Part shown: piece after piece, positions 1 through 30,559 of the stretch
Layout: the number at the start of each line of letters is the position of its first letter
How positions within the stretch are numbered: position 1 is the stretch's first letter
The notes under the pieces: generated by a model
What the model was told of the DNA's origin: nothing
Databases searched by the model: none
Seen by the model: only the letters and a program-made list of their open reading frames with translations
IMG/VR virus record: IMGVR_UViG_3300024999_000121
Coordinates: 1-57,865 of that record
Length of the DNA: 57,865 nt
Strand: one strand, 5' to 3'
From: a virus
Lineage: Duplodnaviria > Caudoviricetes
Translations under genes and position numbers: made by a program

Positions 1-1
1 A

Positions 2-14754: not shown

Positions 14755-14802
14755 ATGGCTTACCAAATATCAGAACAACTACTTAAGCTTAATCGTCCGG
14801 GT
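14755..14802 (+). pseudogene. stranded N-terminus of endolysin
   Basis: MAYQISEQLLKLNRPG matches start of amidase MPYKMSEQLIKYNR at 15997. Confidence 0.65.
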
Positions 14803-14806
14803 AGTA

Positions 14807-14941: not shown

Positions 14942-15017
14942 AAGTGTATGCCTCCTTGCTATTTATATGATATCATGATATAATGACATCATAACATATA
15001 AGGGGGGAAAAAGCAAT

Positions 15018-15962: not shown

Positions 15963-15996
15963 GGAGACGGTTCTTTTTTATATGGAGGATGAATTA

Positions 15997-16626
15997 ATGC
16001 CTTACAAAATGTCAGAACAGCTAATCAAGTATAATAGATCATATCAAAGGCTAAACCCTGTTGGTTACGTCATCCATAGCACAGGTAACCCTAATGATAC
16101 CGTGCAGGGAGAGCGTGATTATTTTAATAGCGGCGACCGTCAAGCTTCCGTTCATTACTTTGTGGGGGCCAACACTATAATCAGATGTATTCCTGAAAAT
16201 GAAGTAGCCTGGGGATGCGGCCCGACAGGCAACCATCGTTATCTACAGGTCGAAATGTGCGAAGGTGAATCGTTCGACGAAGTTTGGGAAAACACGGTTT
16301 CTCTTGTCGCTGAGGCGTGCGTTCGGTATGGTTGGTATACTGGCCCTAATGTGTATTCTCATCGTGGTATATCGCAAATGTGGCACGAGACAAATCACGT
16401 GGATCCTATTGAGTTCTTAGCCAAACATGGCAAAACGTGGGATGATTTGTTAAATGCTATTGATGCGGAGATGAAGAGGATTAAGGATGGAGTTGGCAGT
16501 GTGGCAGAGGCTAAGCCGGACAAGGACGGGTACCTGCTGGTGCGTGTTCTAGATTCAAAATCGGCAGAAGTTCAAGCACAGATCATCAAAATGGGTTATG
16601 CGTGCAAGCCTATTATTCTTCCGTAG
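15997..16626 (+). CDS. endolysin, N-acetylmuramoyl-L-alanine amidase (Amidase_2)
   Basis: VIHST, ASVHYFV, VAW, VEMC, SH, HVDP motifs. Confidence 0.9.
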   Translation: MPYKMSEQLIKYNRSYQRLNPVGYVIHSTGNPNDTVQGERDYFNSGDRQASVHYFVGANTIIRCIPENEVAWGCGPTGNHRYLQVEMCEGESFDEVWENTVSLVAEACVRYGWYTGPNVYSHRGISQMWHETNHVDPIEFLAKHGKTWDDLLNAIDAEMKRIKDGVGSVAEAKPDKDGYLLVRVLDSKSAEVQAQIIKMGYACKPIILP

Positions 16627-16680
16627 AAAAAGTATACCTTGGTATACCTGTAAACTTTTAGTATACCGTTAAGGAAAGGA

Positions 16681-16887
16681 ATGAATCCCATGCGAGAAAA
16701 AGCCACAATCATAGCCATAGGGGGAGTCGTGCTTATTATACTATCCCTCATTGCCTCATCAGGAGTCACTAAGCAGCCTGTGGACTCCGAACTAATCAAG
16801 ATGGCAGTATCGGGCCTTGTTGGGTTCGCAGGAGGTATTGGGGGCACGGTAGCGGTCACAGCATTAAATGCAGGCAAAACAGAATAG
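16681..16887 (+). CDS. small two-TM protein (holin-like)
   Basis: 68 aa, two hydrophobic segments, after endolysin. Confidence 0.6.
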   Translation: MNPMREKATIIAIGGVVLIILSLIASSGVTKQPVDSELIKMAVSGLVGFAGGIGGTVAVTALNAGKTE

Positions 16888-16911
16888 ACCATTCTTCCCA
16901 TGTGGGAAATA

Positions 16912-17025
16912 TGGTATAATAAACTCATTAGAAAAAGAGAAATCTTTTGCGGAGCGAAATTGTGGGCATACCATAAGGACGCTCTATTTTTACTTGCCTC
17001 TCCTTAGCTGGAGGGGCTTATTTTT
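16912..17025 (+). ncRNA. candidate ~100-nt small RNA
   Basis: TGnTATAAT promoter, internal stem GAGCG/CGCTC, terminator GCCTCTCC/GGAGGGGC + T tract, no convincing ORF. Confidence 0.35.
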
Positions 17026-17061
17026 ATGTCCAAATATCGTAAATTCCCCATAATATAGGGT

Positions 17062-17090
17062 TGGACTATTATCGTAATAGGTTGTATGAT
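17062..17090 (+). promoter_or_regulatory. sigma-A promoter with palindromic operator
   Basis: TGGACT-17-TATGAT; CTATTA-tcg-TAATAG palindrome overlapping spacer. Confidence 0.55.
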
Positions 17091-17112
17091 TGTTTGCATA
17101 GGAGGTGTTTAA

Positions 17113-17301
17113 GTGAATAGCAATATTAAGTTTTCCCCTGAACAATTAGTATCCACTACTCAAATTCTGAGGAACTTTTCCCATAACTTCGAGAAGGCGT
17201 CTAATCAACCTCTATTTATTCAAAGGAATCAAGAAATCGAGTGGGTTCTACTAAGCCTAACGGAATACGAAAGACTGATAAACGAAAGGAAGAAAAAATA
17301 A
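17113..17301 (+). CDS. Phd/YefM-like antitoxin-family DNA-binding protein
   Basis: VSTTQILRNFS...PLFIQRN...VLLSLTEYE pattern. Confidence 0.7.
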   Translation: MNSNIKFSPEQLVSTTQILRNFSHNFEKASNQPLFIQRNQEIEWVLLSLTEYERLINERKKK

Positions 17302-17304
17302 AGC

Positions 17305-18624
17305 ATGGCTATAGCATCAAGAGATTCGCCGACGAATGACAACTGGGCTTACTACGAACATCTATTTGATGCTACAACGGATGGTTACATATCATTCGTG
17401 GAAATCAATAATAAATCAGGCGAAAAATTTGTTAGGTCATATAGCACTAATTTGAAATCACTAAGATCAATTGCAACAGCAACAGAGGGCAGAGAAGATA
17501 CCTATGTTAGTCCGAACACATACTTTATGCCTAGACGTTCAGTAAGCAACATTAGACAATATAGGTGCTTATTTATCGACTTGGATATAGAAAAGTACGG
17601 AAAGCATAGCAAGGAAGAAACATTCAAGGAAATACTAGAATTAGTTACTAGTGGTCGTATTCCAATGCCGAGTATGATGACGGACAGTGGCAGAGGGTTT
17701 CACCTGTACTTCAGAGTCAAAAACGCACCAAGGCAAGCGCTTCAAACATTTCAAGAGTTAGAAGATTATCTGTACTATCAACTGAAGGACTTAGGAGCCG
17801 ATCTGAGCGCGACAGATAGCGCGAGAGTACTTAGAATACCCGGAACTATAAATAGTCGCAACAGAGAAGTTTGTAGCATCATATACCAAAACAACGACAC
17901 AGAATATACGATGTACGATTTGAGAGAACATTATCTTAATTACGAAGAGAACAAACGGAATTGGGCTAAGAAAAAAGAGTTCAAGCCTAAGAAAGTTTGC
18001 ATAGTTCGTAATCTATTTAACTCCTATAGCCTTCATATGGGCAGAGTTGATGATGTACAGGCAATATGCAAGCTAAGGAATTATGATGTTGAGGGTTACA
18101 GAAACTTTGTCCTCCATTGCTTTAGTTACTGGAAGGGAATCTATATTAGAGATACGGAACAACTTCTAAGGGAAACTATGGAGTTCAATGGAAAGTTCAA
18201 AAATCCGTTATCCGATAGTGAAGTAAGGATAATATGTAAATCAGTAAAGAAGGCTATCGAAAAGTTTATCGACTACGAACAAGGTATACGAAGCGGATTA
18301 GTCAAACGAGTTACTAAGGGCATGAGGGATAAGCCGGGTTACTGGTATACAAACGCTTATCTGCTCAAGAAGCTAGATATTACGGATACGGAACAGGAAA
18401 AACTCAAAACGATTATTGACGCTTCAGAAAAGTATCGTAGGAAAAAAATTAGAAGAGATGCTAATCGAAGAAATGAAAATGGATTAACCGTGAGACAGCA
18501 AGCAAAACAAGACAAAATAAGGGAAGTCAAGGAACTTTATGAAAACGGTTCAACGCAATCTGAAATAGTTAAGGCGTTGAAAATAACCAAAGGGACTGTT
18601 TCTAAATATATCAGTTATGAATAG
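17305..18624 (+). CDS. plasmid-type replication protein (pIP404/pAMbeta1-like, primase-fold with C-terminal HTH)
   Basis: DTYVSPN, LFIDLD, SGRGFHLY, DSARVLRIPGTINS motifs; C-terminal HTH. Confidence 0.8.
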   Translation: MAIASRDSPTNDNWAYYEHLFDATTDGYISFVEINNKSGEKFVRSYSTNLKSLRSIATATEGREDTYVSPNTYFMPRRSVSNIRQYRCLFIDLDIEKYGKHSKEETFKEILELVTSGRIPMPSMMTDSGRGFHLYFRVKNAPRQALQTFQELEDYLYYQLKDLGADLSATDSARVLRIPGTINSRNREVCSIIYQNNDTEYTMYDLREHYLNYEENKRNWAKKKEFKPKKVCIVRNLFNSYSLHMGRVDDVQAICKLRNYDVEGYRNFVLHCFSYWKGIYIRDTEQLLRETMEFNGKFKNPLSDSEVRIICKSVKKAIEKFIDYEQGIRSGLVKRVTKGMRDKPGYWYTNAYLLKKLDITDTEQEKLKTIIDASEKYRRKKIRRDANRRNENGLTVRQQAKQDKIREVKELYENGSTQSEIVKALKITKGTVSKYISYE

Positions 18625-18720
18625 TTTCCTGAAAGTGTCCCTTATACAGTGTGTGTTAGGGAACTAAGCCAATACACACTGTATTAAGACAAGCAATATC
18701 GAAAGGTAGGTGAGTAATCC

Positions 18721-18978
18721 TTGGGATGTGCAATGGAAAAATTCTCAGACGGATCAACAATATTTTGGTGCGGTAGCGGCATCGACCCCTGCTCTGTATG
18801 CGGTGATATCTCAACAACCTTATGCGATTATCCGGTCGGTCAGCGCAAAACATGTGATCAACCACTTTGTGAAAAGCACTCCATTAAGCAGGGTGCAGAA
18901 TGGCAAGATATTCATTTTTGCCCGGTGCATGTTCTTATCGCTAGGGGATTAGTTAACGAAGGGGATGAGTGGAAATAA
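18721..18978 (+). CDS. Cys-rich hypothetical protein
   Basis: LCDYP...TCD.PLC..H...FCPVH. Confidence 0.6.
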   Translation: MGCAMEKFSDGSTIFWCGSGIDPCSVCGDISTTLCDYPVGQRKTCDQPLCEKHSIKQGAEWQDIHFCPVHVLIARGLVNEGDEWK

Positions 18979-19290
18979 ATGCAAGCTATAAAAATGAACA
19001 TTGGCGGTATCAAGTGCGACAACAAAGAATGCAACTTCAAGGACATGAGTGTCCAATTCGAGGACTACTATAAATGGCTAAATAAGCCTTGTCCTAAGTG
19101 TGGAAGTAATCTATTGACTCAACAGGACTACGACACGGTTAAAATATTAATTGACCTTACTGCGATAGTAAATGAGGAAGTTTCAGACGTTGATGAGGGT
19201 GAGCAATTATTCAAGATGTCGGTTGAGTTTAATGGAACGAGTAGGGTTGTGTTTTCGGATATTGAACCGATTGAGAAGGAGGGGGAATAA
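18979..19290 (+). CDS. Zn-ribbon hypothetical phage protein
   Basis: GIKCDN..C, WLNKPCPKCG. Confidence 0.7.
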   Translation: MQAIKMNIGGIKCDNKECNFKDMSVQFEDYYKWLNKPCPKCGSNLLTQQDYDTVKILIDLTAIVNEEVSDVDEGEQLFKMSVEFNGTSRVVFSDIEPIEKEGE

Positions 19291-19292
19291 CC

Positions 19293-19598
19293 TTGGAAGG
19301 AAGAAGTAGAAAACCCATGACAAGTGGAGTAGGGGCGATGATAAATAACACCAACTACAAAGACATCGGCATGAATAACCATGATGAGTTAAAAGAGTTT
19401 GTAAATGGAGAGCTTTACCTTAACAACACAATCGTCAATACTTGTCTCAAATTCTACAGAAGCGGCGACATATCATATGAAAATGCACTCCTGAGGGCTA
19501 TTGTACATTTAGCCGAAAGATCGGATGCTTTACAAGATGATTTAGTTAAGCGAATAATGCGTGAATCACCCTCAAATGCATGGAGGGATATAAAATGA
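19293..19598 (+). CDS. hypothetical protein
   Basis: ORF in operon, start uncertain. Confidence 0.5.
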   Translation: MEGRSRKPMTSGVGAMINNTNYKDIGMNNHDELKEFVNGELYLNNTIVNTCLKFYRSGDISYENALLRAIVHLAERSDALQDDLVKRIMRESPSNAWRDIK

Positions 19599-20056
19599 AC
19601 TGCCAAACCTGCGCAACTCCAACTAAATACACAACTGGCTTCTGGGACGGAGAATGCGGTACATTTGGACAACTATTTGATTGTCAAAATCTCAACTGTA
19701 AGACAAAGCAGGACAAAATAAAAGACGCTGAATCTGAGGAAGAAAAAAGACAAGCAGTAGTCAAAGCAAACGCCAGGAACGAAGTGCAAATGATATCGAT
19801 CAGGTCCAAAAGAAAAGAACTGCAGATAACTATCTCAAAGATGGCTAAGTCGCTTGGCATATCTCCTTCAGATTATAGCAATTATGAGCAGTGCAGAGTT
19901 GCATTGCCTGTGGAGATGGCGGAGAGGATTGAGGGTATGTTTAGGGATAATGAGGTCAGGGCAATAATGAATCCCAGCGTAGAGGGTGACCCTGTTTTAC
20001 CGGAAAAGTTAATCAAAACTATGCGTAGAGTCGGAAAGGAAGCGTTGGATAAATGA
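19595..20056 (+). CDS. Zn-finger + XRE HTH protein
   Basis: IRSKRKELQITISKMAKSLGISPSDYSNYE. Confidence 0.75.
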   Translation: MNCQTCATPTKYTTGFWDGECGTFGQLFDCQNLNCKTKQDKIKDAESEEEKRQAVVKANARNEVQMISIRSKRKELQITISKMAKSLGISPSDYSNYEQCRVALPVEMAERIEGMFRDNEVRAIMNPSVEGDPVLPEKLIKTMRRVGKEALDK

Positions 20057-20289
20057 ACGAAAAGGAAAAGCAAAGATGCTACATGTCTTTAGTGGGTTGC
20101 TATTGGTTAAGTGTTCATCAGGATCTACGTCCTTGTCGGGGGTGCGATGAGGAGCATCTCCAATATATTGCAGATAAGGAGGAAACGTGGTTCTTTAATG
20201 ATAAGCCTAACGAAAAAGATTTCTTATGGTTTAATCCTAAAGACGGGAAACTGATAATCGGGCATAGTGAGGATAGTGATAATGGCTAA
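20053..20289 (+). CDS. hypothetical protein
   Basis: ATGA-coupled ORF. Confidence 0.55.
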   Translation: MNEKEKQRCYMSLVGCYWLSVHQDLRPCRGCDEEHLQYIADKEETWFFNDKPNEKDFLWFNPKDGKLIIGHSEDSDNG

Positions 20290-20569
20290 ATACCAGCACT
20301 ACAAAGGTGGCATCTACACGTTGATAACCCTCGCTGTCCATACTGAAACCGATGAAAGACTCGTGATATATTGGGATAAGGAGGATTTAGTATTCGCTAG
20401 ACCCTAGGATATGTTTTTTGGTAAGGTTAAGGTAGGGGTAATGAGTGTACCGAGGTTCGCGGAGATTAAGCCAAAGGAGATTGTTCCTGCAGTAAGCACG
20501 AATCTTGTTAAGCCTAAAGAAAACTACATGAGTAATCTGCTGAGGAAATACGGGAGGAATAAACCATGA
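20282..20569 (+). pseudogene. DUF1653-family gene with in-frame TAG at 20405
   Basis: YQHYKGGIY...HTET.E.LVIY...ARP*DMF...VPRF. Confidence 0.75.
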
Positions 20570-20772
20570 CATACGGAATTAGATTTAATCTATTTTTCAA
20601 AAGTCAGATAGAAAAGACAAATCAAGAGAAGATTGAGGCGTTGAAACAGTATTCAGTTGGCGATGCGTTAACCTTACTAAGGAATATCGAGGAATCACCT
20701 AGAGAGTTCGACGGGGAGATAATTCAAGGGGTTTATGCTTGTTTATTTGATAAAGGTATTATGTGCATGTGA
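20566..20772 (+). CDS. hypothetical protein
   Basis: RBS GGAGG, 68 aa. Confidence 0.6.
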   Translation: MTYGIRFNLFFKSQIEKTNQEKIEALKQYSVGDALTLLRNIEESPREFDGEIIQGVYACLFDKGIMCM

Positions 20773-20792
20773 TGAGTAGGGAGAAATAAGCG

Positions 20793-21110
20793 ATGAAACA
20801 AGAAATAACAAAAGAGCAACTAGAATCTCTTCCAATGACCAAACTGGATAAACTTCATGATTACTGGTTTAGAGGAACGTGGACCGAAAGGAATGCCTTG
20901 AAATATTGCATTGAGGTAAAGGGGATTTGCGTTCCTGTTTTAACGATTGGGCAATGTATTGAATTCCTGCGTGACAAGGCAGAATAGGAAACGGATGGAG
21001 GCTTAGAAAATGTTTCGCTAACGGAACCGAGTTTAGCTATTAGCTGGAACGAGGAAGCATATCCAGAGTTGGCAGATGCTTTGTGGGGCGCAGTTAAATC
21101 GATATTGTAG
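20793..21110 (+). pseudogene. phage protein with in-frame TAG at 20985
   Basis: Frame continues after TAG to ELADALWGAVKSIL*, matching the paralogue's end. Confidence 0.7.
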
Positions 21111-21119
21111 GGGGTAAAA

Positions 21120-21487
21120 ATGATGAGACAACGGATAATGGCTGATCAACTCCAGCAACTCTCTCCTGACCAACAAAACTGAGGGAATGGTGGTCTATTC
21201 ACCAACAGCAAGGCGATGTATTTATTTGTCTTGGTAATGACTTTTTAAGCGGAAAAGAATTTGTATGGGATGGAGGCGGCAATCCTCTAAGCCAATCCGT
21301 TCCGCTTCTATCAATCGGACAATGTATCCAAATTATAAAGAATGGTAAAAAATCTTTTATTATTGATATTTTTACAAACTCAGTTGAGTTGTACGACACC
21401 CATAGAAGTCTGGAAAATGATGAAAGTTTTTCTAAGGGAAGAGAGCTTATGGACACACTTTGGCAAGCAGTCAAGAAAATATTGTAG
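21120..21487 (+). pseudogene. frameshifted paralogue of 20793..21110
   Basis: MRQRI..DQLQQLSPDQQ then shifted frame KLREWW...PLLSIGQCI...ELMDTLWQAVKKIL*. Confidence 0.7.
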
Positions 21488-21499
21488 GGGGAATCCACT

Positions 21500-21691
21500 G
21501 TGTTAACTAAATATTGCAAATGGTTTTGCACAGAATTCATCGACGACAACAAGTGGCTTTTTGAAAGCAATTGCGGCGAAAAGCGTGTAGTATCAAGGAA
21601 TGAAAAATTTTATAAGCACATTCATCGTGATGACGATCTTAATTTGTGCCCAAAGTGTGAAAAGCCTATTACGGTTGGTGAGTTGATGTGA
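21500..21691 (+). CDS. Cys-rich hypothetical protein
   Basis: CKW, CG, CPKC.KPI. Confidence 0.6.
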   Translation: MLTKYCKWFCTEFIDDNKWLFESNCGEKRVVSRNEKFYKHIHRDDDLNLCPKCEKPITVGELM

Positions 21692-22131
21692 TTAATTTTA
21701 GGGTGGTGAAGAAGTTGAATCTATTACCATGTCCTGAATGTGGAAATAAGCCAAATCTAGTTTCTTGTGAACCAGAACATCAAAGTATGAAGTATTTTTG
21801 CGGTGTTCACATTTCTTGCGGAGATTGGAAAAGTAGCGAAGAACTAGCTGGTGAGGATTGGAATAAGCGCGTGCAGGAGTACGAATCATCTAAACAACGG
21901 GATAATAAAAAGGAATTTAACAACATTTCTAATCTGGAAATAATTCAGCAAGGCAGAATGAAAACATCCATATCCTGCGATAACTGCGATTACGAAACGG
22001 GCCTCATGGAACAGAGGGATGCTGTGTTTAGAATTAATATGCATGGTGGGTATTTTATGTTCGACGGAGAAGGCGGGCCGGATAGTAAGTGTCCTGGTTG
22101 TGGACTTAACTCATTATGCACAGAAAGTTAA
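21688..22131 (+). CDS. Lar-like (restriction alleviation) Zn-finger fusion protein
   Basis: LLPCPECG...CG...A.EDWNKR plus second Zn ribbon. Confidence 0.55.
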   Translation: MINFRVVKKLNLLPCPECGNKPNLVSCEPEHQSMKYFCGVHISCGDWKSSEELAGEDWNKRVQEYESSKQRDNKKEFNNISNLEIIQQGRMKTSISCDNCDYETGLMEQRDAVFRINMHGGYFMFDGEGGPDSKCPGCGLNSLCTES

Positions 22132-22154
22132 TATTGTGGGGAGGATTAAGAGGG

Positions 22155-22355
22155 ATGGCAAGAAAGTTATTTCAATGCGAAAAGTGTAATTCAGTTCACG
22201 CTTCAGAGAAGGAAGCTGATAGGTGCGAATCAACCCATTTGGAGCCAGAAAAACAAGAGTTAGTATTTAGTGAAAAAGATAGGAAATCAGAATATCCTTC
22301 AGAAGTTAAGTTATGGTTTAATAAGAAGTGCGTTACCTATACTAGACAGCAATAA
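22155..22355 (+). CDS. small Zn-finger protein
   Basis: FQCEKC...A..CE..H. Confidence 0.6.
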   Translation: MARKLFQCEKCNSVHASEKEADRCESTHLEPEKQELVFSEKDRKSEYPSEVKLWFNKKCVTYTRQQ

Positions 22356-22366
22356 ATAACACAAAC

Positions 22367-22392
22367 AAATACCATCCAACTCGGATGGTATT
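22367..22392. terminator. hairpin between convergent units
   Basis: AATACCATCC-aactc-GGATGGTATT. Confidence 0.6.
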
Positions 22393-22532
22393 ATCTATTC
22401 CAGGTACCAACGTTCGGATATTCTACCTCCCCCACTCTCCCCTGCTCAACTCATCTCTGTCCAAATGCCCTCTTTTGCACAATCTACAAGGATAGGAGGG
22501 AGGCTACCCGAACAATCGGCTATATAATGTCG

Positions 22533-22667
22533 CTATAACGTTCGCCTAACTCTATAACCCTTCTTGCGCTTCTTAGGTTGGAATACTGGAACAGCCTCAC
22601 GATGCTGAGGCAACATAAAAATAAATAAGAGTGGACCGAATACAATCGCTAAGGTAATCCATGTCAC
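22533..22667 (-). CDS. 44-aa membrane peptide with basic tail (absent from ORF track)
   Basis: GTG overlapping RHH stop, RBS AAGGGGG; MTWITLAIVFGPLLFIFMLPQHREAVPVFQPKKRKKGYRVRRTL. Confidence 0.6.
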   Translation of the reverse strand: MTWITLAIVFGPLLFIFMLPQHREAVPVFQPKKRKKGYRVRRTL

Positions 22668-22879
22668 GCTTGTTCCCCCTTTGACATTGCTAACTTTATC
22701 ACAAGGGAGCGCAATCGGTCAGCCTCTTCCTTCAATCGTTCTGTTTCTCCTAGTAATTCTGAGCAGGCTAAATTAACTGCAGCATTACGTGAGATCCCGC
22801 AGCCCTTTGCATAAGCATCTAAATCCTTCAAGAGTGGGGTGGAGAAGTGAATTAGTGCCGGCTTCTTTTTCTTTTCCAT
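22664..22879 (-). CDS. RHH/CopG-like repressor
   Basis: ALIHFSTPLLKDLDAYAKGCGISRNAAV; RBS GGGAGG. Confidence 0.75.
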   Translation of the reverse strand: MEKKKKPALIHFSTPLLKDLDAYAKGCGISRNAAVNLACSELLGETERLKEEADRLRSLVIKLAMSKGEQA

Positions 22880-22893
22880 GGAGCAACCTCCCT

Positions 22894-22910
22894 TATATCA
22901 AGTTGATATA
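22894..22910. promoter_or_regulatory. palindromic operator TATATCAAGTTGATATA
   Basis: Perfect 8-1-8 inverted repeat upstream of RHH gene; related TATCAACTTGATA at 22990-23002. Confidence 0.6.
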
Positions 22911-22938
22911 TGTTTATGGGAGTTTGCAGGAAATATGA

Positions 22939-23493
22939 CTAGCTTTTGCTGAAGAATTTCCACCAGGGTTTTTTATTGCGTTGCTGCTGTATCAACTTGA
23001 TATCGTTGAGCTTCTGTAGCACTTCAGCGTCTCTGCTCTCTGCGCTCCTGCGGCTATCCTCAGCTTTCTCGTAGAGCTTTACGAATCCTTTATCGAATTC
23101 TGCCCTCATGTCCTCAAGTTCATCTTGAAGTTTGAGTATAATGTGGTTCTGTTTAGCTAGTTCTTCGAGTAGAGTATGGCGGATATTCTGCGCTAAATCT
23201 TCCTGTTGTACTACTTTTGTTCTGTTATTTTCCATCAACTCGGTTGAATTAGGTATAGCGTATCCATACTTTTTGTCAAGGTCCTGCTTTATTTGCTCGT
23301 AATCAAGCCCATCTTTATAATGCTTGGCAACGAGCAGGAATAGTTCAATATTTGACTCATCATACTTACGGTGTCGGCCTTCTCCTGATACTTTTAGATA
23401 TTCTTCAAAGCGATCACGGTAGAAGGCAGCAAGGCTTGCTCCGATTCCAACTCTTTCCGCTATCTGTTTTAGGGTTAAATCCATGTTATGCAC
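22939..23493 (-). CDS. MerR-type HTH + coiled coil + KPWWKFF tail; pSK1 Par/RacA-like segregation protein
   Basis: LTLKQIAERVGI...GEGRHRKY; long coiled coil; amphipathic C-terminus. Confidence 0.7.
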   Translation of the reverse strand: MHNMDLTLKQIAERVGIGASLAAFYRDRFEEYLKVSGEGRHRKYDESNIELFLLVAKHYKDGLDYEQIKQDLDKKYGYAIPNSTELMENNRTKVVQQEDLAQNIRHTLLEELAKQNHIILKLQDELEDMRAEFDKGFVKLYEKAEDSRRSAESRDAEVLQKLNDIKLIQQQRNKKPWWKFFSKS

Positions 23494-23656
23494 AACCTTT
23501 CCTGTGGATAACTTATTAATAAGATAATATGTAAAGGTTATTTATGAGTAGTTATTTATGTATGTAGATCTGTTCATTTTGATCAGACGGCCTGTTCATT
23601 TTGATCAGGCGTTGCCTGTTCATTTTGATCAGACGGTTTCCTACCCCTGTGGATAA
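23486..23656. other. plasmid-type origin: DnaA boxes, AT-rich repeats, three 17-bp iterons
   Basis: TGTGGATAA at 23503 and 23648, TTATGCACA at 23486; GTTATTTATG x2; CTGTTCATTTTGATCAG at 23570, 23592, 23616. Confidence 0.8.
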
Positions 23657-23668
23657 GTCCTGAAACCC

Positions 23669-24064
23669 CTATAGATGCTCACTATTCTTCTCTAAATAGG
23701 CATTCCATAGCTCGTTAAGTTTGCCATAATCTATGGTGTACCACTTAGTATGGTCGCCTTTATCTCCATTTAATTCTACACTTACAACTACCCCTAATCC
23801 CTCAAGATCTTTTATCATCCTCCTGATTGTCATTGCCGACCACCACGGGGACTGTTTGTGCCATTGCTCATAAGTATTCCATACCCATCTCCTACGCTCT
23901 ATAATGACCCCTGACTCCGTGTTGAGCCAATAGTGTAACTTCTGCACAAAGACAGCCTTATCAAGCCCCAGAACCTTAACTAGCCTCTCCTGAATAACAA
24001 CCAAGTGCCCGTCATGTATGAGTAGGTCAGACTTGTACTCTGTTGACATTTTTGGAATTTGCAC
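23669..24064 (-). CDS. short winged-helix replication initiator
   Basis: LGLDKAVFVQKLHYWL...WVWNTYEQW..QSPWWS..TIRR...TKWYTIDY = N-terminal domain of Firmicutes phage/plasmid initiators. Confidence 0.8.
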   Translation of the reverse strand: MQIPKMSTEYKSDLLIHDGHLVVIQERLVKVLGLDKAVFVQKLHYWLNTESGVIIERRRWVWNTYEQWHKQSPWWSAMTIRRMIKDLEGLGVVVSVELNGDKGDHTKWYTIDYGKLNELWNAYLEKNSEHL

Positions 24065-24097
24065 AATAAAAAAACTCCTGTCTAATCAAATTAAAGG

Positions 24098-24205
24098 ATG
24101 ACAGAAGTAGGAATGTGTTTTATACTAAATTAAAGCACATATAGACTCCTGTCGGGGGCCTCTTCGAACAATCACTTTGGCGGTGGGTAGTTCGGAGAGG
24201 TTTTT
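24098..24205 (+). ncRNA. antisense copy-control RNA (ctRNA) with own promoter
   Basis: ATGACA-17-TATACT; hairpin CCTCTTCGAAC/GTTCGGAGAGG with TTTGGCG loop and T tract, antisense to rep leader. Confidence 0.7.
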
Positions 24206-24247
24206 CCTTTTCTCCCTAATTCGACAGGTTGAATCTATTATCCTACC

Positions 24248-24361
24248 TTAGCTAAAAAAATAAGTAACGAACTCATGGAGATACCGAGGATCGAGTATGG
24301 TCAGGTCATTATCAACGACTATCCACTTAAAGAATCCGCCTAAATCCATTTCAATAATCAT
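24248..24361 (-). CDS. 37-aa peptide upstream of rep
   Basis: RBS AAGGAAGG; MIIEMDLGGFFKWIVVDNDLTILDPRYLHEFVTYFFS. Confidence 0.4.
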   Translation of the reverse strand: MIIEMDLGGFFKWIVVDNDLTILDPRYLHEFVTYFFS

Positions 24362-24518
24362 CCGCAAACCTTCCTTTCTTATCCCATGATACAATATCCC
24401 TCCTTTGTATTAAGGGGGTAACAAAAACTATATTTCCGACTATATATTTCCTTATGTGCATAAATGTACAAAAAGAAGAGAGTATCCGATGTATTGCGAT
24501 TGGATACTCTCTAAATAT

Positions 24519-24902
24519 TCATTTAGACTTCATTTTTTTTATAGTCTCTAGGAGATCGCGGAGGAATATGGGGTCAATTTGCTCGTTGTACAAGTCCTTT
24601 GCCAACATAGCGTATGGCAAGCTTTCCTGTTTGGCGAAGAACTCTATTACATCATCCGGTAGATCAACGTTGTTTAACTCGGTGAGTTTACGGAGAGACA
24701 TGATGTTGTTGTCTAGGAGATAGGCAGAGTCAACTCCAAGCGCTGTAGCTACTTTTTCCAATGCCTTAATCGACATGTTGCTTTTTCCTGTTTCTGCATC
24801 AGACAAATAAGACAAGGAAAAACCTGTTAAGTCGCGCAGATCGGCAAGCGTCATTCCTCTTACAGTTTCTCTTATATATCTAATTTTGTGACCATAGTCC
24901 AT
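24519..24902 (-). CDS. XRE-family immunity repressor
   Basis: HTH MTLADL...SLSYLSDAETGK; divergent from cro-like gene. Confidence 0.85.
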   Translation of the reverse strand: MDYGHKIRYIRETVRGMTLADLRDLTGFSLSYLSDAETGKSNMSIKALEKVATALGVDSAYLLDNNIMSLRKLTELNNVDLPDDVIEFFAKQESLPYAMLAKDLYNEQIDPIFLRDLLETIKKMKSK

Positions 24903-25127
24903 TTTACATATCCTCCATCCATGTAAAGTATTATCTAATTATTAGTATTCTCATTTACACATGTTCGTTATAACTGAAACTAAATATTTTTACAATTATT
25001 CCGAAATAGGCTATATTTATGCTTGATTTATCGCCGTCACCGATATATACTAAGCATATGTTATAGATTAATGGTCTAGAACTCCGAAACCAAGTATTCG
25101 GTATTACTTTAAAAGGGGGTGGATGAA

Positions 25128-25325
25128 TTGACAATCGGCAGCCAAGTTCGTAAATATCGAAATAAGAAAGCATGGACATTAAGCGAGCTTGGGGAACGCG
25201 CAAAGCTCAAGGGTAACACTCTGAGCGATATTGAAAATGATAAGTGCGATCCAAGTTTAAGGTCGCTAAGAAGGGTAGCTGAAGCCCTTGAGATCGAAGT
25301 TGCCTGCCTGTTCCAAACGGTGTAA
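25128..25325 (+). CDS. Cro-like XRE regulator
   Basis: WTLSELGE...TLSDIENDKCDPSLRSL. Confidence 0.85.
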   Translation: MTIGSQVRKYRNKKAWTLSELGERAKLKGNTLSDIENDKCDPSLRSLRRVAEALEIEVACLFQTV

Positions 25326-25738
25326 ATCTTTCTTTTTTATTTTACTATTTAAAAAGTCCATTAACCTTAATCAAACCTTCCGATTGCCTGACCAGCAAAT
25401 AGAAGGGAGTCAATTACCTTTATTTTATTTAATGGATTTGGCATACTTCCAGTCAATCAATACGGACCAGGTATTGATAAGCCGAAAGTACGCCGAATGA
25501 GCAACATTGCTCTGAGTAATTTTTCGTCCCACCACAGAACGATTCAGGTACTTCAATACCTGCATTAAACACCGCCGTAGTCCATAGGGCTTGTTTGCTA
25601 CGCTCTTGTTTAACTGTGTTCAGTTTACACTATAAACAATAGCTTGACAAGAGGTTTTTCAATTAATTTATGACAAATTTGCAAAAAAGTATTAGAAAAA
25701 GTATGTTTTGGAAACGTTTCGTCAAGGAGGGGAAGGTA

Positions 25739-26002
25739 ATGGAGAAGATTCTAGTAGATGAATTCAGACGGTTGACAGGCTTTAACGGTGGCGATATTGC
25801 CGCTAAGTACAATGTTAGTCGGCAGTTTGTCCATCAAGTATTGAATAATTACTCGTTAACACATAGGGCGAGTTCGGCATTCTTCCTTAACTCAATGATC
25901 GGAGAACAGATTTCATCACTGAGAAGACAGATACAGGACTTGGAGTTATTACAGGTCAATATTGAGGGTAGCGTAACGAATAGGGAGGACAAGCATGAGT
26001 AA
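25739..26002 (+). CDS. small HTH protein
   Basis: DIAAKYNVSRQFVHQ; RBS AAGGAGG. Confidence 0.65.
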   Translation: MEKILVDEFRRLTGFNGGDIAAKYNVSRQFVHQVLNNYSLTHRASSAFFLNSMIGEQISSLRRQIQDLELLQVNIEGSVTNREDKHE

Positions 26003-26750
26003 TTTAATTCCGGTTGAATATCAAGGTCAAAGAATTCTTACGACTTCACAATTGGCCGAGTCGTATGGGACGGACAACAAACACATATCTGACAACTACG
26101 TCAACAACTCATCAAGGTACACCATCGGGAAGCATCTATTCAAATTAGAAGGAGAAGCACTATCTAGGTTCAAAGAAGGGTATCCGAAAATTTCCGATAG
26201 CCTTAAATTTACCTCAATCCTTCTGCTCTGGACAGAAAAGGGAGCATGGCTCCATGCCAAATCTCTCAACACTGACAAAGCATGGGAAGCGTATGAGATA
26301 TTGGTCGATGATTATTACTCAGTCAAGAAGTCGTTACCTAAATCAAACGTACCGAACGAAGCACAAATGCTAAGAGCACAAGCAATGCACAAAAACGCAG
26401 TTGCGGCACAAGCAAAGCTAATGAAGGAAATTGCATCAGAGTTCCAGAGCAAGTTATCCGGCGAAGCTGTTCAACTTCTACTAGGTGGAATTACCGAACT
26501 TCTAATGGGCAGGCCACTTCTCCCGATGCCGACGATTGATAAAACTTACACAGCTACGGAGATTGGCGCAGCATTGGGAGTTACCTCAACTAAGATCGGC
26601 AAGTTAGCAAATGCGAACAATCTCAAAACGGATGAGTATGGAATTACTGTGCTGGACAAGTCCCCATATAGCAGTAAGCAGGTTCCGGCGTTTAGGTATA
26701 ACGAATGTGGGTTTGAGAAGCTGAGGGAGTTAGTGGGTGAATCGGAGTAA
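25995..26750 (+). CDS. ORF6N-domain antirepressor
   Basis: EYQGQRILTTSQLAESY...LWTEKGAWLHAKSLNTDKAWE; C-terminal YTATEIG. Confidence 0.85.
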   Translation: MSNLIPVEYQGQRILTTSQLAESYGTDNKHISDNYVNNSSRYTIGKHLFKLEGEALSRFKEGYPKISDSLKFTSILLLWTEKGAWLHAKSLNTDKAWEAYEILVDDYYSVKKSLPKSNVPNEAQMLRAQAMHKNAVAAQAKLMKEIASEFQSKLSGEAVQLLLGGITELLMGRPLLPMPTIDKTYTATEIGAALGVTSTKIGKLANANNLKTDEYGITVLDKSPYSSKQVPAFRYNECGFEKLRELVGESE

Positions 26751-27019
26751 TGGTGGATATCGAATTCGATGAAGAAAAACCATTATCAGAAGAAAGCCGC
26801 GTTCACCTAATCGAAGGAGCCATAAAGCACAGAACGCAAACTGAAAGTATACCAAACCTAAAAGGTTTTACCGAATATCTACTAAGGAGTCTTATGAATG
26901 ACGAATGCCTACGCTGTCAACTCTGCAAATCAAACATGGGGAAATGCAACGGTAAGCAAGGCGGAAATCCGTGCTTGATGTTCAAGAAGACTAAGGTTGT
27001 TCATTTTGAAATCAAATAA
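26750..27019 (+). CDS. hypothetical protein
   Basis: coupled ORF, Cys cluster. Confidence 0.55.
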   Translation: MVDIEFDEEKPLSEESRVHLIEGAIKHRTQTESIPNLKGFTEYLLRSLMNDECLRCQLCKSNMGKCNGKQGGNPCLMFKKTKVVHFEIK

Positions 27020-27033
27020 AACCGAGGTGAATC

Positions 27034-27228
27034 ATGTCAAACCAAACGCTCGAACAACGTATCGCATCCCTCGAAAAAGAGGTATCCGAACTAAAGGCAC
27101 AAGTTGCCAACCATCCATCATTCGAAGTAATTCGAGACGCATCAATTGATATTTTTCTCGAAGTGATCAAGGTTCAAAGGAAATTATGGGGTCGTAGTAA
27201 TCAAATGAAAGCGAGGAAATCTAATTGA
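27034..27228 (+). CDS. hypothetical coiled-coil protein
   Basis: RBS GAGGTG. Confidence 0.6.
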   Translation: MSNQTLEQRIASLEKEVSELKAQVANHPSFEVIRDASIDIFLEVIKVQRKLWGRSNQMKARKSN

Positions 27229-27476
27229 AAACTAACAACCCAGCCAATCAAATCAGTCAAGCGGCCAAATCACGCGGTCTATCCTACTGGGAGTACATCG
27301 AATCAACTCAACCCCATCATGTGCAAAAGTTCGTTTGGGGTGGAAAGAAGGAAACTGCCAAAGAGAAACGCGAGGCCGTAGACAAGGTTATCTCTCGTCT
27401 CGGTAGTTCAGGTAATCCCATGGCGAGGTTGTTCGCTCAAATGCGGAGTTTGATTGGGAAGAGGAGTGCTTATTGA
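27225..27476 (+). CDS. hypothetical protein
   Basis: coupled ORF. Confidence 0.55.
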   Translation: MKTNNPANQISQAAKSRGLSYWEYIESTQPHHVQKFVWGGKKETAKEKREAVDKVISRLGSSGNPMARLFAQMRSLIGKRSAY

Positions 27477-27790
27477 TGAAAATATACGTGGCGGGAAAGA
27501 TCACTGGGAATGACAATTTCGTCGAACAATTCAAGCAAGCAGAAACAATGCTGAAGGAAAAAGGGCATGTTGTAATTAACCCATCGTTATTGCCTATTGG
27601 GTTTGAACACGGAGAGTATATGAGCGTGTGTCTACCGATGGTGAGGATATGCGATGCCATCTATTTACTGAATGATTGGGGGTCTAGCAGGGGTGCAAAT
27701 ATGGAAAAGGACTATGCCGGATGTTTGGGCAAATTGATCTTTTTCGAGGGAGATACGCCATGCAGCATCAGAAAGCCGGAAACCAAGTGA
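27473..27790 (+). CDS. DUF4406-family protein
   Basis: KIYVAGKITG, INP, CDAIYLL..W..SRGA..E. Confidence 0.8.
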   Translation: MMKIYVAGKITGNDNFVEQFKQAETMLKEKGHVVINPSLLPIGFEHGEYMSVCLPMVRICDAIYLLNDWGSSRGANMEKDYAGCLGKLIFFEGDTPCSIRKPETK

Positions 27791-27951
27791 GGAAAGATCA
27801 AAAAAGGCGTTTATCTTATCAGGAGCAACAACGCATTAAGGCAAACTACGGCAAAACCTTTAAGGATGTTCTGAAGTCGGTGCAGTTAACTGAAGGTCAG
27901 TTGAAAGTTTTCACATCAAAGTTAATTAAATAATCAAAAAGGAAGTGCCCA

Positions 27952-28212
27952 ATGAGAATAAATATCAACGAAAAATACTGTGTAACCTCAAATACCAACT
28001 CCATGATGGTCAACCAAAGAAACGTTCCACCTAAGTTCGACAAGGATGGCGAGGAAGTTCTTACCACGATTGCCCACCTACTCACATTGAATCAATGCTA
28101 TAAATTCCTTCTTCGCCATCAAATCAGGATTTCCAAGGCGACTGGATTCAAGGAGCTAATGGAGGAAGTTGGCCGGATTGAGAAGGAGCTAGACGATTCT
28201 ATAAGGATTTAA
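27952..28212 (+). CDS. hypothetical phage protein
   Basis: 86 aa ORF in early operon. Confidence 0.6.
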   Translation: MRININEKYCVTSNTNSMMVNQRNVPPKFDKDGEEVLTTIAHLLTLNQCYKFLLRHQIRISKATGFKELMEEVGRIEKELDDSIRI

Positions 28213-28226
28213 GGGGGGCAAGAGAA

Positions 28227-28559
28227 TTGCAAACATGGGAAATGGTTAAGGAATTGACAGAAAATCCAACCAAGGAATTCGAAAGAGTTGGTGACAGGAA
28301 AATATTTAAAGCATCTCCTAAGATTAAGGGCGGACTAGTAATTACGCATTATGTAAGTGATTTGCACACTTCATTCGAGTGTATAACCTTGACAGACGAT
28401 TGGGAATTAGTACGCACGCCTGTTAACTTCTTAGCGGCAACCGAAAGCGGTAAAGATATTAGACCGGAAGGCTATGGAGGCGCGTATTATTCTTTAGCTT
28501 ATTGGTTGAACGGTAGACTTGACGCATCCATGATATGCGGAAAATGGCTAATCGAATAA
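28227..28559 (+). CDS. hypothetical protein (paralogue family with 35122 and 35453)
   Basis: WELV..PVNFL.A..SGK.IRP...GKWLIE. Confidence 0.65.
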   Translation: MQTWEMVKELTENPTKEFERVGDRKIFKASPKIKGGLVITHYVSDLHTSFECITLTDDWELVRTPVNFLAATESGKDIRPEGYGGAYYSLAYWLNGRLDASMICGKWLIE

Positions 28560-28572
28560 AGGAGGTATCCCA

Positions 28573-28800
28573 ATGGTGAAGCAAAAACCTCAACTCTGCC
28601 TTTGCGGCAAAGAAGTCAACTTGCCAGATGGAGAAGTCAAAACAGTTTGTTCCTGCTCTAGGCCATGGGAAATCAGCACTGAAGGAATCCTGTTCACTAA
28701 TTTGATGTTCTCATTTGAACCTGTCGAGAAGGTTGCCCCTTTTTTAACGAAGGATCGTCCGAGGAATAAACGAAAGAGAAAGGCAGGAATGAGTAAATGA
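28573..28800 (+). CDS. Zn-ribbon hypothetical protein
   Basis: CLCG...CSC; RBS AAGGAGG. Confidence 0.6.
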   Translation: MVKQKPQLCLCGKEVNLPDGEVKTVCSCSRPWEISTEGILFTNLMFSFEPVEKVAPFLTKDRPRNKRKRKAGMSK

Positions 28801-29378
28801 AAACTGTAGAGGAAGTCACTAAACTAGCAGCAGAGTGGTGGTCCGATAAGGTTTGTCACCCTAAGTTCGATAATGGAGACTCTTCGCAAACTGGTGGTAT
28901 GACTATGATGATGGCGATGTTATGCACAAAACCTGTTCAAAACGATTCCAAGCAACTATTCACTGATATTTTAGCTAAAAAGATTATCCCAGTACTCGAA
29001 TCAATAGACCGTGATGTTATTTTGAGCGTTGACTACGGACCAGACAGGATGCTTCACGATGCGGCGCAAGAAGCCGATATACCTTCAACGAACTTCCCGT
29101 GGAAAACAACTATGTGGATCACTAATCATCATGTCGCTGTTCGCTATGGGTATCGCGCTCCGATTGAATACTTGTACATGGATATAGATTATTGCGAACA
29201 ACAGATTGAGAGGCATAAGCAAAGCATTGCCCATTACCGGGATGAGTCCTACTTTTCATTCTATGAGGATGTTGAATACCGCAAGAAACAAATGCGTGAG
29301 GGAGAAACAGAGGCAATTGAGCAATTGGAGTTATGGGAGAAGAGAAAGGCGGGATTCGGATGTTCAAAATCAAAGTAA
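28797..29378 (+). CDS. hypothetical phage protein
   Basis: 193 aa, LSVDYGP...FPWKT motif. Confidence 0.65.
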   Translation: MKTVEEVTKLAAEWWSDKVCHPKFDNGDSSQTGGMTMMMAMLCTKPVQNDSKQLFTDILAKKIIPVLESIDRDVILSVDYGPDRMLHDAAQEADIPSTNFPWKTTMWITNHHVAVRYGYRAPIEYLYMDIDYCEQQIERHKQSIAHYRDESYFSFYEDVEYRKKQMREGETEAIEQLELWEKRKAGFGCSKSK

Positions 29379-29662
29379 TCGGCAAAAGAGTCTGCGAGGC
29401 AATTGGCAATCAGTTAGTGCGTTTCGAGTGGTTTCGGAGAGAGGTGCAAGCTTATGAGGATAGGCAAGCAAAACAACTGTATGAGCAGAAGATGCAGAGG
29501 AATAAGGATCACTGGGCAGACCTGATGAAGTCAGGCGGCAGTATGCGGAGCGAGGATAAGGAAGATGACAGCATGAAAGTGGTTGAACTGTTTAATCCAG
29601 TGTTCTCTCGGATGGATTGTGTAAATTGGGGCGAAAGGAACAAACGCTATGACCGCATATGA
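29360..29662 (+). CDS. hypothetical protein
   Basis: ORF bridging neighbours, start uncertain. Confidence 0.5.
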   Translation: MFKIKVIGKRVCEAIGNQLVRFEWFRREVQAYEDRQAKQLYEQKMQRNKDHWADLMKSGGSMRSEDKEDDSMKVVELFNPVFSRMDCVNWGERNKRYDRI

Positions 29663-30002
29663 AGAAGAAGTATTGTCCATCATCAACACCCTCCAAATAC
29701 CTCAACATATGAAGGGGTTCAAGCTCATCACAACCGCAATGGATCTTATCAACTCAAATCCTATGTACCTCCTAAAGTGGGCAAAGCTCCACGGCAAGAT
29801 TAGCGAACTCCACGACTGTTCGCCTCGCCAAGTAGAGGGCAATATCTATCACTGTCTGCAATGTGCTAAAACTGATTTTTATACTCAGAAGGAAGTGCTA
29901 GGCACTAATTACGAAATGGGAACAGCCGAGTTCTTGGCAACATTGCATCGAGTAATAACGATTCGGATGGCAGATAAGGAGGAACTGTCATGCGTAAATT
30001 GA
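29649..30002 (+). CDS. Spo0A C-terminal DNA-binding domain protein
   Basis: LQIPQHMKGF...VEGNIYH...AEFLA aligns to Spo0A GVPAHIKGY...VERAIRH...SEFIA. Confidence 0.8.
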   Translation: MTAYEEEVLSIINTLQIPQHMKGFKLITTAMDLINSNPMYLLKWAKLHGKISELHDCSPRQVEGNIYHCLQCAKTDFYTQKEVLGTNYEMGTAEFLATLHRVITIRMADKEELSCVN

Positions 30003-30379
30003 CCAAGGATGAGCTAAGTGCAATCCAAGACCTATCGGACAATACATCCCTAATTGAGCAAGTTAGCACCGACCGCCATTCCAATACATTAACCAGAATT
30101 ACTGTGATATCTCAGGTTAACGCTGATTGGGATCGAGTAGATGCCTTACTAAATAGCATCTTTCCAGAATTGGAGTATCGCGGAAAGTCTGGAATCGATA
30201 CTAAGGACGGAATTATATCAGAACATTTCTCAATAGATGTTGATGGAGAAACCTTGATAAATCTTTGCATGAAAAAGGACCCCACTGCAATGGAGTCCGA
30301 AGGAAAAACTACTCAAGAACAGTTTACCAGAAATGATGAAGTTTTAGAACTACCAGGGCCATGTGAATCTTGTGTTTAA
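29990..30379 (+). CDS. hypothetical protein
   Basis: RBS AAGGAGG. Confidence 0.6.
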   Translation: MRKLTKDELSAIQDLSDNTSLIEQVSTDRHSNTLTRITVISQVNADWDRVDALLNSIFPELEYRGKSGIDTKDGIISEHFSIDVDGETLINLCMKKDPTAMESEGKTTQEQFTRNDEVLELPGPCESCV

Positions 30380-30557
30380 GGGCAGAGAATGGTATCGAGA
30401 ATTTCATGAGCAGGATTATGAAAACTCTGGGGATGAATTAGAACACGAAGATGATTTAGGGAACTGCACAAAATGCGAACACAATTCCTACTGCACAGGA
30501 GGGTGCCTAAATAGAGCATCGCATTGCTGGAAATTTAAAAAGAAGGAAGAGGTATAA
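30363..30557 (+). CDS. small Cys-rich protein
   Basis: CTKC...C..GC. Confidence 0.45.
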   Translation: MNLVFKGREWYREFHEQDYENSGDELEHEDDLGNCTKCEHNSYCTGGCLNRASHCWKFKKKEEV

Positions 30558-30559
30558 AT

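Follow-up and report, generated by a model that had tools for sequence, protein, structure and literature searches.

Phage-plasmids have been described as common, with replication and partition genes that are poorly known beyond a few models, especially in Bacillota (PMC7969092). In the published account of Bacillus phage IEBH (vB_BceS-IEBH), the prophage replicates as a circular plasmid, and a fragment of ~2 kb from its plasmid-like region, with a putative rep open reading frame (ORF), self-replicates (PMC4113786). IEBH has also been treated as a bona fide phage-plasmid (PMC7969092), and the interval from lysin to repressor has already been described as the site of a plasmid-like region in phage-plasmids (PMC4113786, PMC7969092). 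The DNA considered here, "the window", is the whole of IMG/VR virus record IMGVR_UViG_3300024999_000121 (57,865 bases; CheckV 85% complete, end repeats absent). Like IEBH it represents a temperate tailed phage whose lysin and repressor genes flank a plasmid-like region, although the two have no nucleotide similarity. Next to the repressor gene, on the minus strand, lies a compact module with a 131-amino-acid (aa) initiator, an iteron origin, a MerR-type coiled-coil protein and several small genes (Table 1). With a probability of roughly 0.6, the phage persists as a plasmid, the 8-kb stretch from endolysin to repressor is its plasmid-like region, and the minus-strand module comprises a theta-type replicon and stability genes. 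A plasmid lifestyle as such is likely, and a part for this particular origin in maintenance is reasonably probable; Bacillota are the probable hosts.

Iteron plasmids with DnaA boxes, of the pSC101, P1 oriR, F and RK2 type, carry the initiator gene beside direct repeats, DnaA boxes and an AT-rich region. The window follows the same plan, with the initiator gene beside repeats, DnaA boxes and an AT-rich block, and with iterons that vary with the initiator. When the 17-nucleotide (nt) iteron CTGATCAAAATGAACAG was searched for with up to three mismatches, there were 4 matches in the window against 0.27 expected, and four or more were found in 0 of 100 shuffled sequences; the array has a Tandem Repeats Finder score of 109. 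No iteron was found elsewhere in the window, the lytic replication region included. Perfect DnaA boxes number three in the 57.9-kb window against 0.59 expected, and two of these frame the iterons, 145 nt apart. Three iterons flanked by DnaA boxes had been proposed in an earlier, sequence-only reading of this DNA, and the proposal holds: the repeats are exact, the boxes are perfect and the arrangement is kept in relatives. Unlike the Rep_3-type initiators of iteron plasmids, which have two winged helices, the window initiator is a single phage-related winged-helix domain; the window also differs in having only three iterons and in its probable Bacillota hosts.

Searching a viral collection with the initiator yielded eight loci with initiators 72-93% identical to that of the window. 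The order of repressor, initiator, origin and MerR-type gene is kept in six of the eight, so that synteny in other phages, suggested as a check on the earlier reading, was indeed found. When the origin of the window was compared with those of five related loci (L002, L004, L006, L007 and L009), the two DnaA boxes and the AT-rich block were constant throughout. The iterons differ in type by initiator lineage: the window type occurs in L002 and L007, CTGTCCATTTTGGCCACA in L004 and L009, and ATGTTCATTTTGAACAA in L006. Iterons that change with the initiator, while the sites for a host factor stay constant, argue for a real origin with initiator-specific sites. The survey was widened to 154 loci with an initiator homologue, drawn from viral contigs and species-representative genomes, of which 8 are close (at least 72% identity) and 146 distant. 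All eight close relatives have an ORF of 130-158 aa and two to three perfect DnaA boxes no more than 400 nt downstream, whereas none of the 146 distant homologues, most of them 200-400 aa long, has a perfect DnaA box within that distance. Loss of the C-terminal part of the initiator thus appears to be coupled to the gain of DnaA boxes, and we infer that helicase loading may have been handed over to the host DnaA pathway. Taken together, the module has the appearance of an iteron origin assisted by DnaA, its initiator lacking a domain.

The sequence-only reading had called the 131-aa protein a truncated phage-type initiator, and its match to phrog_6493 is in fact restricted to the N-terminal half of that family. 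Judged by this match, the protein is only the presumptive origin-binding N-terminal domain of phage DnaD/O-like initiators; the profile match stops at position 117 of 261, and there is no C-terminal domain (e.g., Phg_2220_C) for recruitment of the helicase or helicase loader. The N-terminal domains of phage DnaD-like and lambda O-like initiators (phrog_6493, phrog_428 and Phg_2220_C proteins) are homologous to that of the window, and the best-matching initiators, from Geobacillus, Bacillus and Lactobacillus phages, are 41-47% identical over 79-90% of the length. Unlike these phage initiators, the window protein lacks a C-terminal half, its gene is accompanied by DnaA boxes, and the gene is on the repressor strand. 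No Pfam match was obtained for it, and BLASTP detected no similarity to the phage's own 266-aa initiator. An AlphaFold2 (AF2) model (pLDDT 85.3) matches winged helix-turn-helix (wHTH) folds. RepA_N-type initiators, such as RepA of pTZ2162, likewise have a winged-helix N-terminal domain that binds iterons, a binding that is predicted for the window protein. The fold match to PDB 4pql_B, which we take to be the pTZ2162 RepA N-terminal domain, is weak (TM-score 0.54-0.55 over 123 columns, E 0.065) and no better than the matches to many wHTH regulators. Unlike RepA_N initiators, the window initiator has no C-terminal host-specific domain, and it shows no sequence relation to them.

Lysogeny by integration was addressed with six-frame searches for tyrosine and serine recombinases (PF00589 and PF00239), the protelomerase family (PF16684) and the rve domain (PF00665). 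None of the four was found in the window or in the related genomes G001, G002 and G003; PF07508 was not searched. No ParA above threshold was found in the window, the ParM and TubZ families not having been searched; the sole CbiA match is sub-threshold (E 0.0065) and lies inside the primase-helicase gene. The earlier statement that the window has no integrase, ParA or protelomerase is borne out for these families, and integrases are also absent from G001, which is 100% complete by CheckV. A Mu-like transposing phage was ruled out by the lack of an rve domain, and an N15-like linear plasmid by the lack of a protelomerase. Phage functions in packaging, virion, lysis and lysogeny control are represented by both terminase subunits, lytic tail proteins, an endolysin, a repressor/Cro pair and an anti-repressor. 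There is a second, plus-strand replication module, complete with the 266-aa initiator (Phg_2220_C) and a primase-helicase, and this is, as judged from gene content, a separate lytic replicon. The absent part of the genome appears to be morphogenesis genes, which would join the terminase end of the window (right) to its tail-gene end (left). The earlier remark that the head region is missing is consistent with PHROG scans of 49 ORFs, in which no head protein was recognized in this 85%-complete window.

From these elements, their conservation and co-variation, the domain loss that accompanies the DnaA boxes and the lack of an integrase, we infer both the plasmid state and a series of biochemical steps. 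The 131-aa winged-helix protein would bind the three iterons, and host DnaA would occupy the two flanking boxes. The AT-rich block between the boxes would then open, and host DnaA-dependent helicase loading would replace the function of the initiator's absent C-terminal domain.

Beyond the origin lies the gene for the MerR-type protein. It may be compared with the pneumococcal protein RocS, with Par of plasmid pSK1, an already described single-protein partition system, and with RacA, for which the order wHTH, coiled coil, membrane-type tail has been set out (PMC11500499). An AF2 model (pLDDT 78.6, pTM 0.40) divides the window protein into a wHTH (residues 1-73), a disordered linker, a helix of 83 residues (87-169) and a short helix (174-178). 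Like pSK1 Par, RocS and RacA, it is thus modeled with an N-terminal MerR-type wHTH, a long predicted coiled coil and a short C-terminal element, which in RacA is a DivIVA-binding end. Fold searches returned MerR regulators first and also the RacA DNA-binding domain (5i44_K; TMt 0.76, root-mean-square deviation 2.1 over 63 columns). The MerR_1 match (5.4e-04) is under the Pfam cut-off, and NCBIfam gave only sub-threshold MerR-type matches. The tail, QQQRNKPxWxRxF, is conserved, basic, aromatic and strongly amphipathic; its hydrophobic moment is 0.50-0.68 and ranks 1st to 9th among 154-175 windows in each of 15 MerR-type proteins. In being amphipathic and basic it is like the membrane helix described for RocS and Par (PMC11500499). 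Those 15 proteins, all metagenomic, constitute the close family; at an E-value cut-off of 0.001, a profile of the family collects 902 cluster representatives. Among named clusters, uncharacterized MerR_1/DUF3967 proteins of Bacillota are the nearest. Homologues at 24-29% identity, mostly full length, are on 11 plasmids of Brevibacillus, Bacillus, Niallia, Priestia, Heyndrickxia and Thermaerobacter, eight of the plasmids being 5-11 kb in size and one homologue lying beside a rep gene; none was found in 50,697 phage records. A difference from Par, RocS and RacA is that, in four relatives, a gene for an FtsK-like ATPase comes after the MerR-type gene.

A role in segregation or tethering is a tentative assignment. 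The protein would bind phage DNA, oligomerize by its long helix and anchor the DNA by its basic-aromatic tail, after the fashion of pSK1 Par, RocS and RacA. The description "Par/RacA-like" in the sequence-only reading is apt as to domain order and the fold match to the RacA domain; no sequence link to Par, RocS or RacA was found. NTPase-free segregation, also proposed there, describes the window and does not extend to the family, given the FtsK/SpoIIIE-like ATPase in four loci and a ParA in G004. G000 to G003 have the MerR-type protein and no ParA, and G004 has ParA, elsewhere on its contig, and no MerR-type gene; from this one ParA case only, the two kinds of protein would seem to occur in different elements.

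Several observations weigh against the interpretation given so far. As the window is 85% complete, an integrase could be encoded in the remainder of the genome. Runs that hold the stretch are four DNA runs (X1-X4) of one groundwater study, with no RNA run among them, and their contigs are short unitigs, fragmented by numerous mosaic relatives, that are uninformative on topology, host junctions and copy number. All relatives are metagenomic and the module is in no isolate; the best match of the 131-aa initiator among 185,579 species genomes is 52% identical, and G001 is a mosaic relative rather than the same phage. A terminator-like hairpin divides the repressor gene from the module, so that expression of the module in lysogeny is only assumed. 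In G004, the initiator and origin are the only replicon, they are directly upstream of DnaC-like and DnaB-like genes, and a tyrosine recombinase gene is 1.3 kb from the initiator. This arrangement indicates that the cassette can be a sole origin, and that general or lytic replication is also within its scope. As regards the MerR-type protein, no sequence relation to Par, RocS or RacA was detectable, DUF536 did not appear at E 0.1 or better, and no centromere-like site could be assigned to it, the sole palindrome pair going with the ribbon-helix-helix (RHH) gene; the protein could be a plain regulator or, in view of the FtsK-like ATPase gene downstream of it in relatives, an adaptor of that ATPase.

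A further point of this kind, the 439-aa Rep, leads to the first of the alternatives, since it could be the real maintenance replicon. Nearer the endolysin, and overlooked in the sequence-only reading, is a gene for a primase-polymerase-type plasmid Rep, so that the compact module, real as it is, is not the whole of the plasmid-maintenance region. Matches to the Rep are present in 651 plasmid records, 396 of them covering at least 80% of the protein, and the best (49-55% identity over 94-97% of the length) are from small Clostridium and Paraclostridium plasmids. For one 9-kb plasmid, 6 features are listed, and none but its homologue is Rep-like. Pairwise, it is 26% identical (E 2e-32) to the annotated replication protein of IEBH, the only one annotated in the IEBH plasmid-like region, and it occupies the same lysin-to-repressor slot as in that phage. 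A plasmid-type Rep in this region independently supports a plasmid lifestyle. The plasmid prophage might then be maintained by the Rep, and the 131-aa protein with its origin would provide a second origin (auxiliary, or for the lytic phase) or determine incompatibility. The self-replicating ~2-kb fragment of IEBH (PMC4113786) would speak for this if it carries the Rep-homologous ORF. IEBH has an MreB/actin-like gene beside its Rep and, among the features listed for it, neither a short initiator nor a MerR-type gene, both of which are present in the window. No iterons or other strong repeats were found around the 439-aa Rep gene. G001 has the same module (short initiator, origin and MerR-type gene) and its own separate initiator and helicase, yet no Rep homologue and no integrase. 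The short-initiator module is therefore the only candidate maintenance replicon of that genome. Maintenance by the Rep in place of the 131-aa origin is, on this evidence, unlikely; the window may nevertheless have two maintenance replicons, or the Rep may be the main one.

Less favored is integration by a recombinase encoded in the unsequenced 15%, which would make the module an ordinary phage origin or a plasmid-derived passenger, in either case without a part in lysogeny. The incompleteness of the window (85% by CheckV) leaves room for such a gene, in G004 a tyrosine recombinase as well as helicase and loader genes accompany this initiator and origin, and the terminator-like hairpin between the repressor gene and the module fits as well. 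What is missing, however, appears to be morphogenesis genes, and G001, at 100% completeness, is devoid of tyrosine and serine recombinases. The recombinase of G004 may resolve dimers, as G004 also has ParA, which fits a plasmid, and lytic growth is already provided for in the window by the other replication module, itself complete. We consider integration improbable. A dominant-negative role, in which the 131-aa protein is an initiator copy that only binds DNA and blocks the origins of related superinfecting phages (replication-level exclusion) instead of starting replication, is very improbable. In its favor, the protein lacks the C-terminal domain of most of the 146 distant homologues, its gene is beside the immunity repressor, and many mosaic relatives coexist in the same samples (runs X1-X4, positions 13000-31000 compared). 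Against it, the iterons, DnaA boxes and conserved AT-rich block of its own in all eight close relatives are the layout of a working origin and not of a decoy, the 131-aa protein is the only initiator of the element in G004, and the iteron recurs nowhere else in the window, not even in the lytic replication region.

Under the preferred reading, that of a plasmid-borne prophage with a DnaA-assisted origin, the remaining parts of the module would serve its control and stability. Its upstream boundary is the gene for an XRE/cI-type repressor; homologues of the latter (39-94% identity) head the same module in six of the eight related loci. The hairpin just 3' of the repressor stop was not among the sites listed by a terminator scan; terminator-like in form, it suggests that the module below has its own promoter. 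The short peptide noted earlier below the repressor is encoded by an ORF that recurs in related loci. With tblastn it was found in two of the eight (L004, 81%; L009, 51%), both of which keep the gene order, and in two of six further loci (L174 and L175); ORFs resembling it were noticed by eye in L002 and L173.

Between this peptide and the initiator is a leader of ~180 nt that appears to be structured. The sense strand folds with a minimum free energy (MFE) z-score of -4.04, and the RNAalifold consensus of six sequences keeps both the leader hairpin and a helix able to cover the ribosome-binding site (RBS), with compensatory change in 3 of 16 pairs. On the plus strand, a promoter-like site (ATGACA-17-TATACT, 10 of 12 matches) is followed by a hairpin and a T-rich run, and the fold there has z = -3.02. 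Read by eye, the alignment of six relatives has paired differences in the hairpin stem and a constant -35/-10 position in all six. No Rfam family was found in 21000-26500 at E 1 or better. The antisense RNA of the sequence-only reading is a candidate, with a promoter-like site, a hairpin and a T-rich run. A countertranscript that limits initiator synthesis is plausible on these features, and the structured leader, probably together with it, would keep the initiator in check.

At the far end of the module are two small genes and a highly structured 3' region. The RHH-like protein is encoded at the place first read and is 95-99% identical in all six further loci (L171-L176), and its family matches are weak. 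The membrane peptide of the sequence-only reading, 44 aa long and encoded by the overlapping gene, has a Kyte-Doolittle 19-mer maximum of 2.24 at residue 1 and a C-terminal tail with a net charge of +8. It is conserved at the protein level in the same six loci (tblastn, 55-91% identity); it would act in exclusion or addiction. One copy of a palindrome is 5' of the RBS of the RHH gene, and a second is within the 3' end of the MerR gene. A scan found the palindrome in the window and not in four relatives without the window-type RHH, and the pair is a candidate RHH operator, at which the RHH protein would repress its own small operon. The structured 3' region had likewise been noted from the sequence, and the minus strand of 22360-22535 folds at an MFE of -66.3 kcal/mol (z = -6.06), which none of 200 shuffled sequences equals. 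Within the long hairpin there is also a minus-strand promoter-like site (22449-22420).

Variation of the module among relatives concerns mainly the initiator and the genes after MerR. In the six further loci L171-L176, an unrelated 167-aa winged-helix-like protein is in the initiator slot, with 15-nt tandem repeats inside its gene, and the slot is bounded by repressor-side genes on one side and by the MerR, RHH and membrane-peptide genes on the other. A different initiator in the same slot indicates that the slot takes different initiator-origin cassettes. In L002, L004, L006 and L009 the MerR gene is followed by genes for an FtsK/SpoIIIE-like ATPase of 380-460 aa and then a protein of ~225 aa. 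The L004 ATPase matches EssC (1.5e-18) and plasmid TraB (1.2e-15), both far under the cut-offs; L002 and L006 additionally encode membrane proteins and, by sequence motif, an M23-like peptidase. The ATPase block resembles a module for DNA transfer or translocation, here carried on phage contigs. When 11 proteins of relatives (the FtsK-like ATPases, the ~225-aa proteins, and the G004 recombinase, DnaC-like and DnaB-like proteins) were compared with the window by tblastn, no match was found.

The category of phage-plasmid, and a plasmid-like region in this slot, are known; the sequence-only reading had called the combination unrecognized, and that much of it stands with respect to the module. 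No description of the module was found in literature on phage-plasmids, iterons, DnaA boxes and DUF3967, and this is the sole basis on which the parts and their combination are called undescribed in the literature searched. Nucleotide searches of the module against phage and plasmid collections gave no match. A more general proposition, still doubtful, is that a phage-plasmid lineage swapped the helicase-recruiting half of its initiator for host DnaA by way of the two boxes around the iterons, that the phage segregates by one MerR-type coiled-coil protein of the MerR_1/DUF3967 family, itself then a widespread NTPase-free partition or tethering family, and that the slot accepts interchangeable initiator-origin cassettes. 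If true, the family would work like pSK1 Par and RocS, though unrelated in sequence, on plasmids and phage-plasmids of Bacillota. A candidate function would then be at hand for a sizeable uncharacterized family (902 cluster representatives, with members on small plasmids). Initiator domain loss that coincides with DnaA-box gain provides a natural experiment on the division of labor between initiator and host. The module is a compact putative replicon open to direct testing and, if confirmed, the fragment would be usable as a small vector backbone for its hosts.

Table 1. Features of the minus-strand module, of the rest of the window and of selected relatives (positions are those of the window unless a locus or genome is named; layout from PHROG scans of 49 ORFs)
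Feature	Position	Strand	Remarks
XRE/cI-type repressor, 127 aa	24519-24902	-	HTH_3 6.9e-09; phrog_8 and phrog_3 repressor families
Hairpin just 3' of repressor stop, then T-run	24477-24512	-	14-nt arms, 93% complementary, 8 nt apart
Small conserved peptide, 37-48 aa by start choice	24248-24394	-	core MDLGGFFKWIVVDNDL..DP.Y
Structured initiator leader, ~180 nt	24065-24247	-	hairpin ~24160-24200 and helix able to cover RBS
Candidate countertranscript	24098-24210	+	promoter-like site 24098-24126, hairpin, T-rich run
131-aa winged-helix initiator	23669-24064	-	phrog_6493 5.2e-28, profile positions 5-117 of 261
Origin (predicted)	23501-23656	-	DnaA box, three iterons, AT-rich block, DnaA box
Iterons, three exact 17-nt CTGATCAAAATGAACAG copies	23570-23636		spacing 22 and 24 nt
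DnaA boxes	23501-23511 and 23646-23656		perfect TTATCCACA at 23503-23511 and 23648-23656
AT-rich block, 58 nt	23512-23569		two CATAAATAAC repeats
MerR-type wHTH and coiled coil, 184 aa	22939-23493	-	ATG 23484 probable start, giving 181 aa
Palindrome ATATCAA(G/C)TTGATAT, two copies	22895-22909, 22989-23003		inverted repeat, 14 nt, 100% complementary
RHH-like protein, 71 aa	22664-22879	-	phrog_18157 1.1e-05; BrnA antitoxin 0.006, far under cut-off
Membrane peptide, 44 aa	22533-22667	-	start overlaps RHH stop; one N-terminal hydrophobic helix
Long imperfect hairpin	~22405-22520	-	3' of membrane-peptide gene, ~115 nt
Terminator hairpin closing minus-strand module	22368-22392	-	terminator-like site in scan
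Minus-strand block	22533-24902	-
Primase-polymerase-type plasmid Rep, 439 aa	17305-18624	+	C-terminal helix-turn-helix; phrog_9432 5.8e-35; weak RepB_primase match
Tail and lytic tail proteins	1-12288		PHROG scan
HNH/homing-endonuclease-like gene, 314 aa	15018-15962	+	phrog_559, 6.2e-73; immediately 5' of endolysin
Endolysin	15982-16626		PHROG scan
Small plus-strand genes	up to 22355	+
Cro-like gene	25119-25325	+	HTH_3 4.5e-09; divergent from repressor
Anti-repressor	from 25995	+	early region
SbcC-like	from 30560	+	early region
RecT-like	from 32566	+	early region
Methyltransferase	from 36002	+	early region
266-aa initiator	37065-37865	+	Phg_2220_C domain
Primase-helicase	38529-40469	+	then dUTPase
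Small terminase subunit	from 50320		PHROG scan
Large terminase subunit	from 54196		PHROG scan
167-aa replacement protein	L173 1873-2376		also L171, L174-L176; between small peptide and MerR gene
ATPase blocks in relatives	L002 7236-10063; L004 7249-9368; L006 7553-10867; L009 7216-9280
G004 features	L007 (G004) 3786-10277; G004 17089-17868

Other features of the window were noted in passing. It has no tRNA genes. A second endonuclease-like ORF (52997-53647) lies between the terminase genes, and directly before the small terminase gene there is a minus-strand block of four ORFs of 143-193 aa (47757-50101), three of which have no match in PHROG and one a weak match to a function-less family. Two minus-strand ORFs between the tail and lysis genes (12681-13397 and 13416-13793) have signal-peptide-like N-termini and a common C-terminal motif, ..LQALSLV, and are possibly lysogenic-conversion genes. 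At 20860-21490 there is a degenerate direct duplication of ~370 nt, made up of three repeat families with a spacing of 275-377 nt and 77-80% identity; it overlaps a 64-aa ORF (20793-20987) and a segment in which the plus strand has no long ORF. In the sequencing runs, summed contig depth is several-fold higher over conserved segments (e.g., 25020-25620), and unitigs identical to the window have a depth of ~44-69 in X1.

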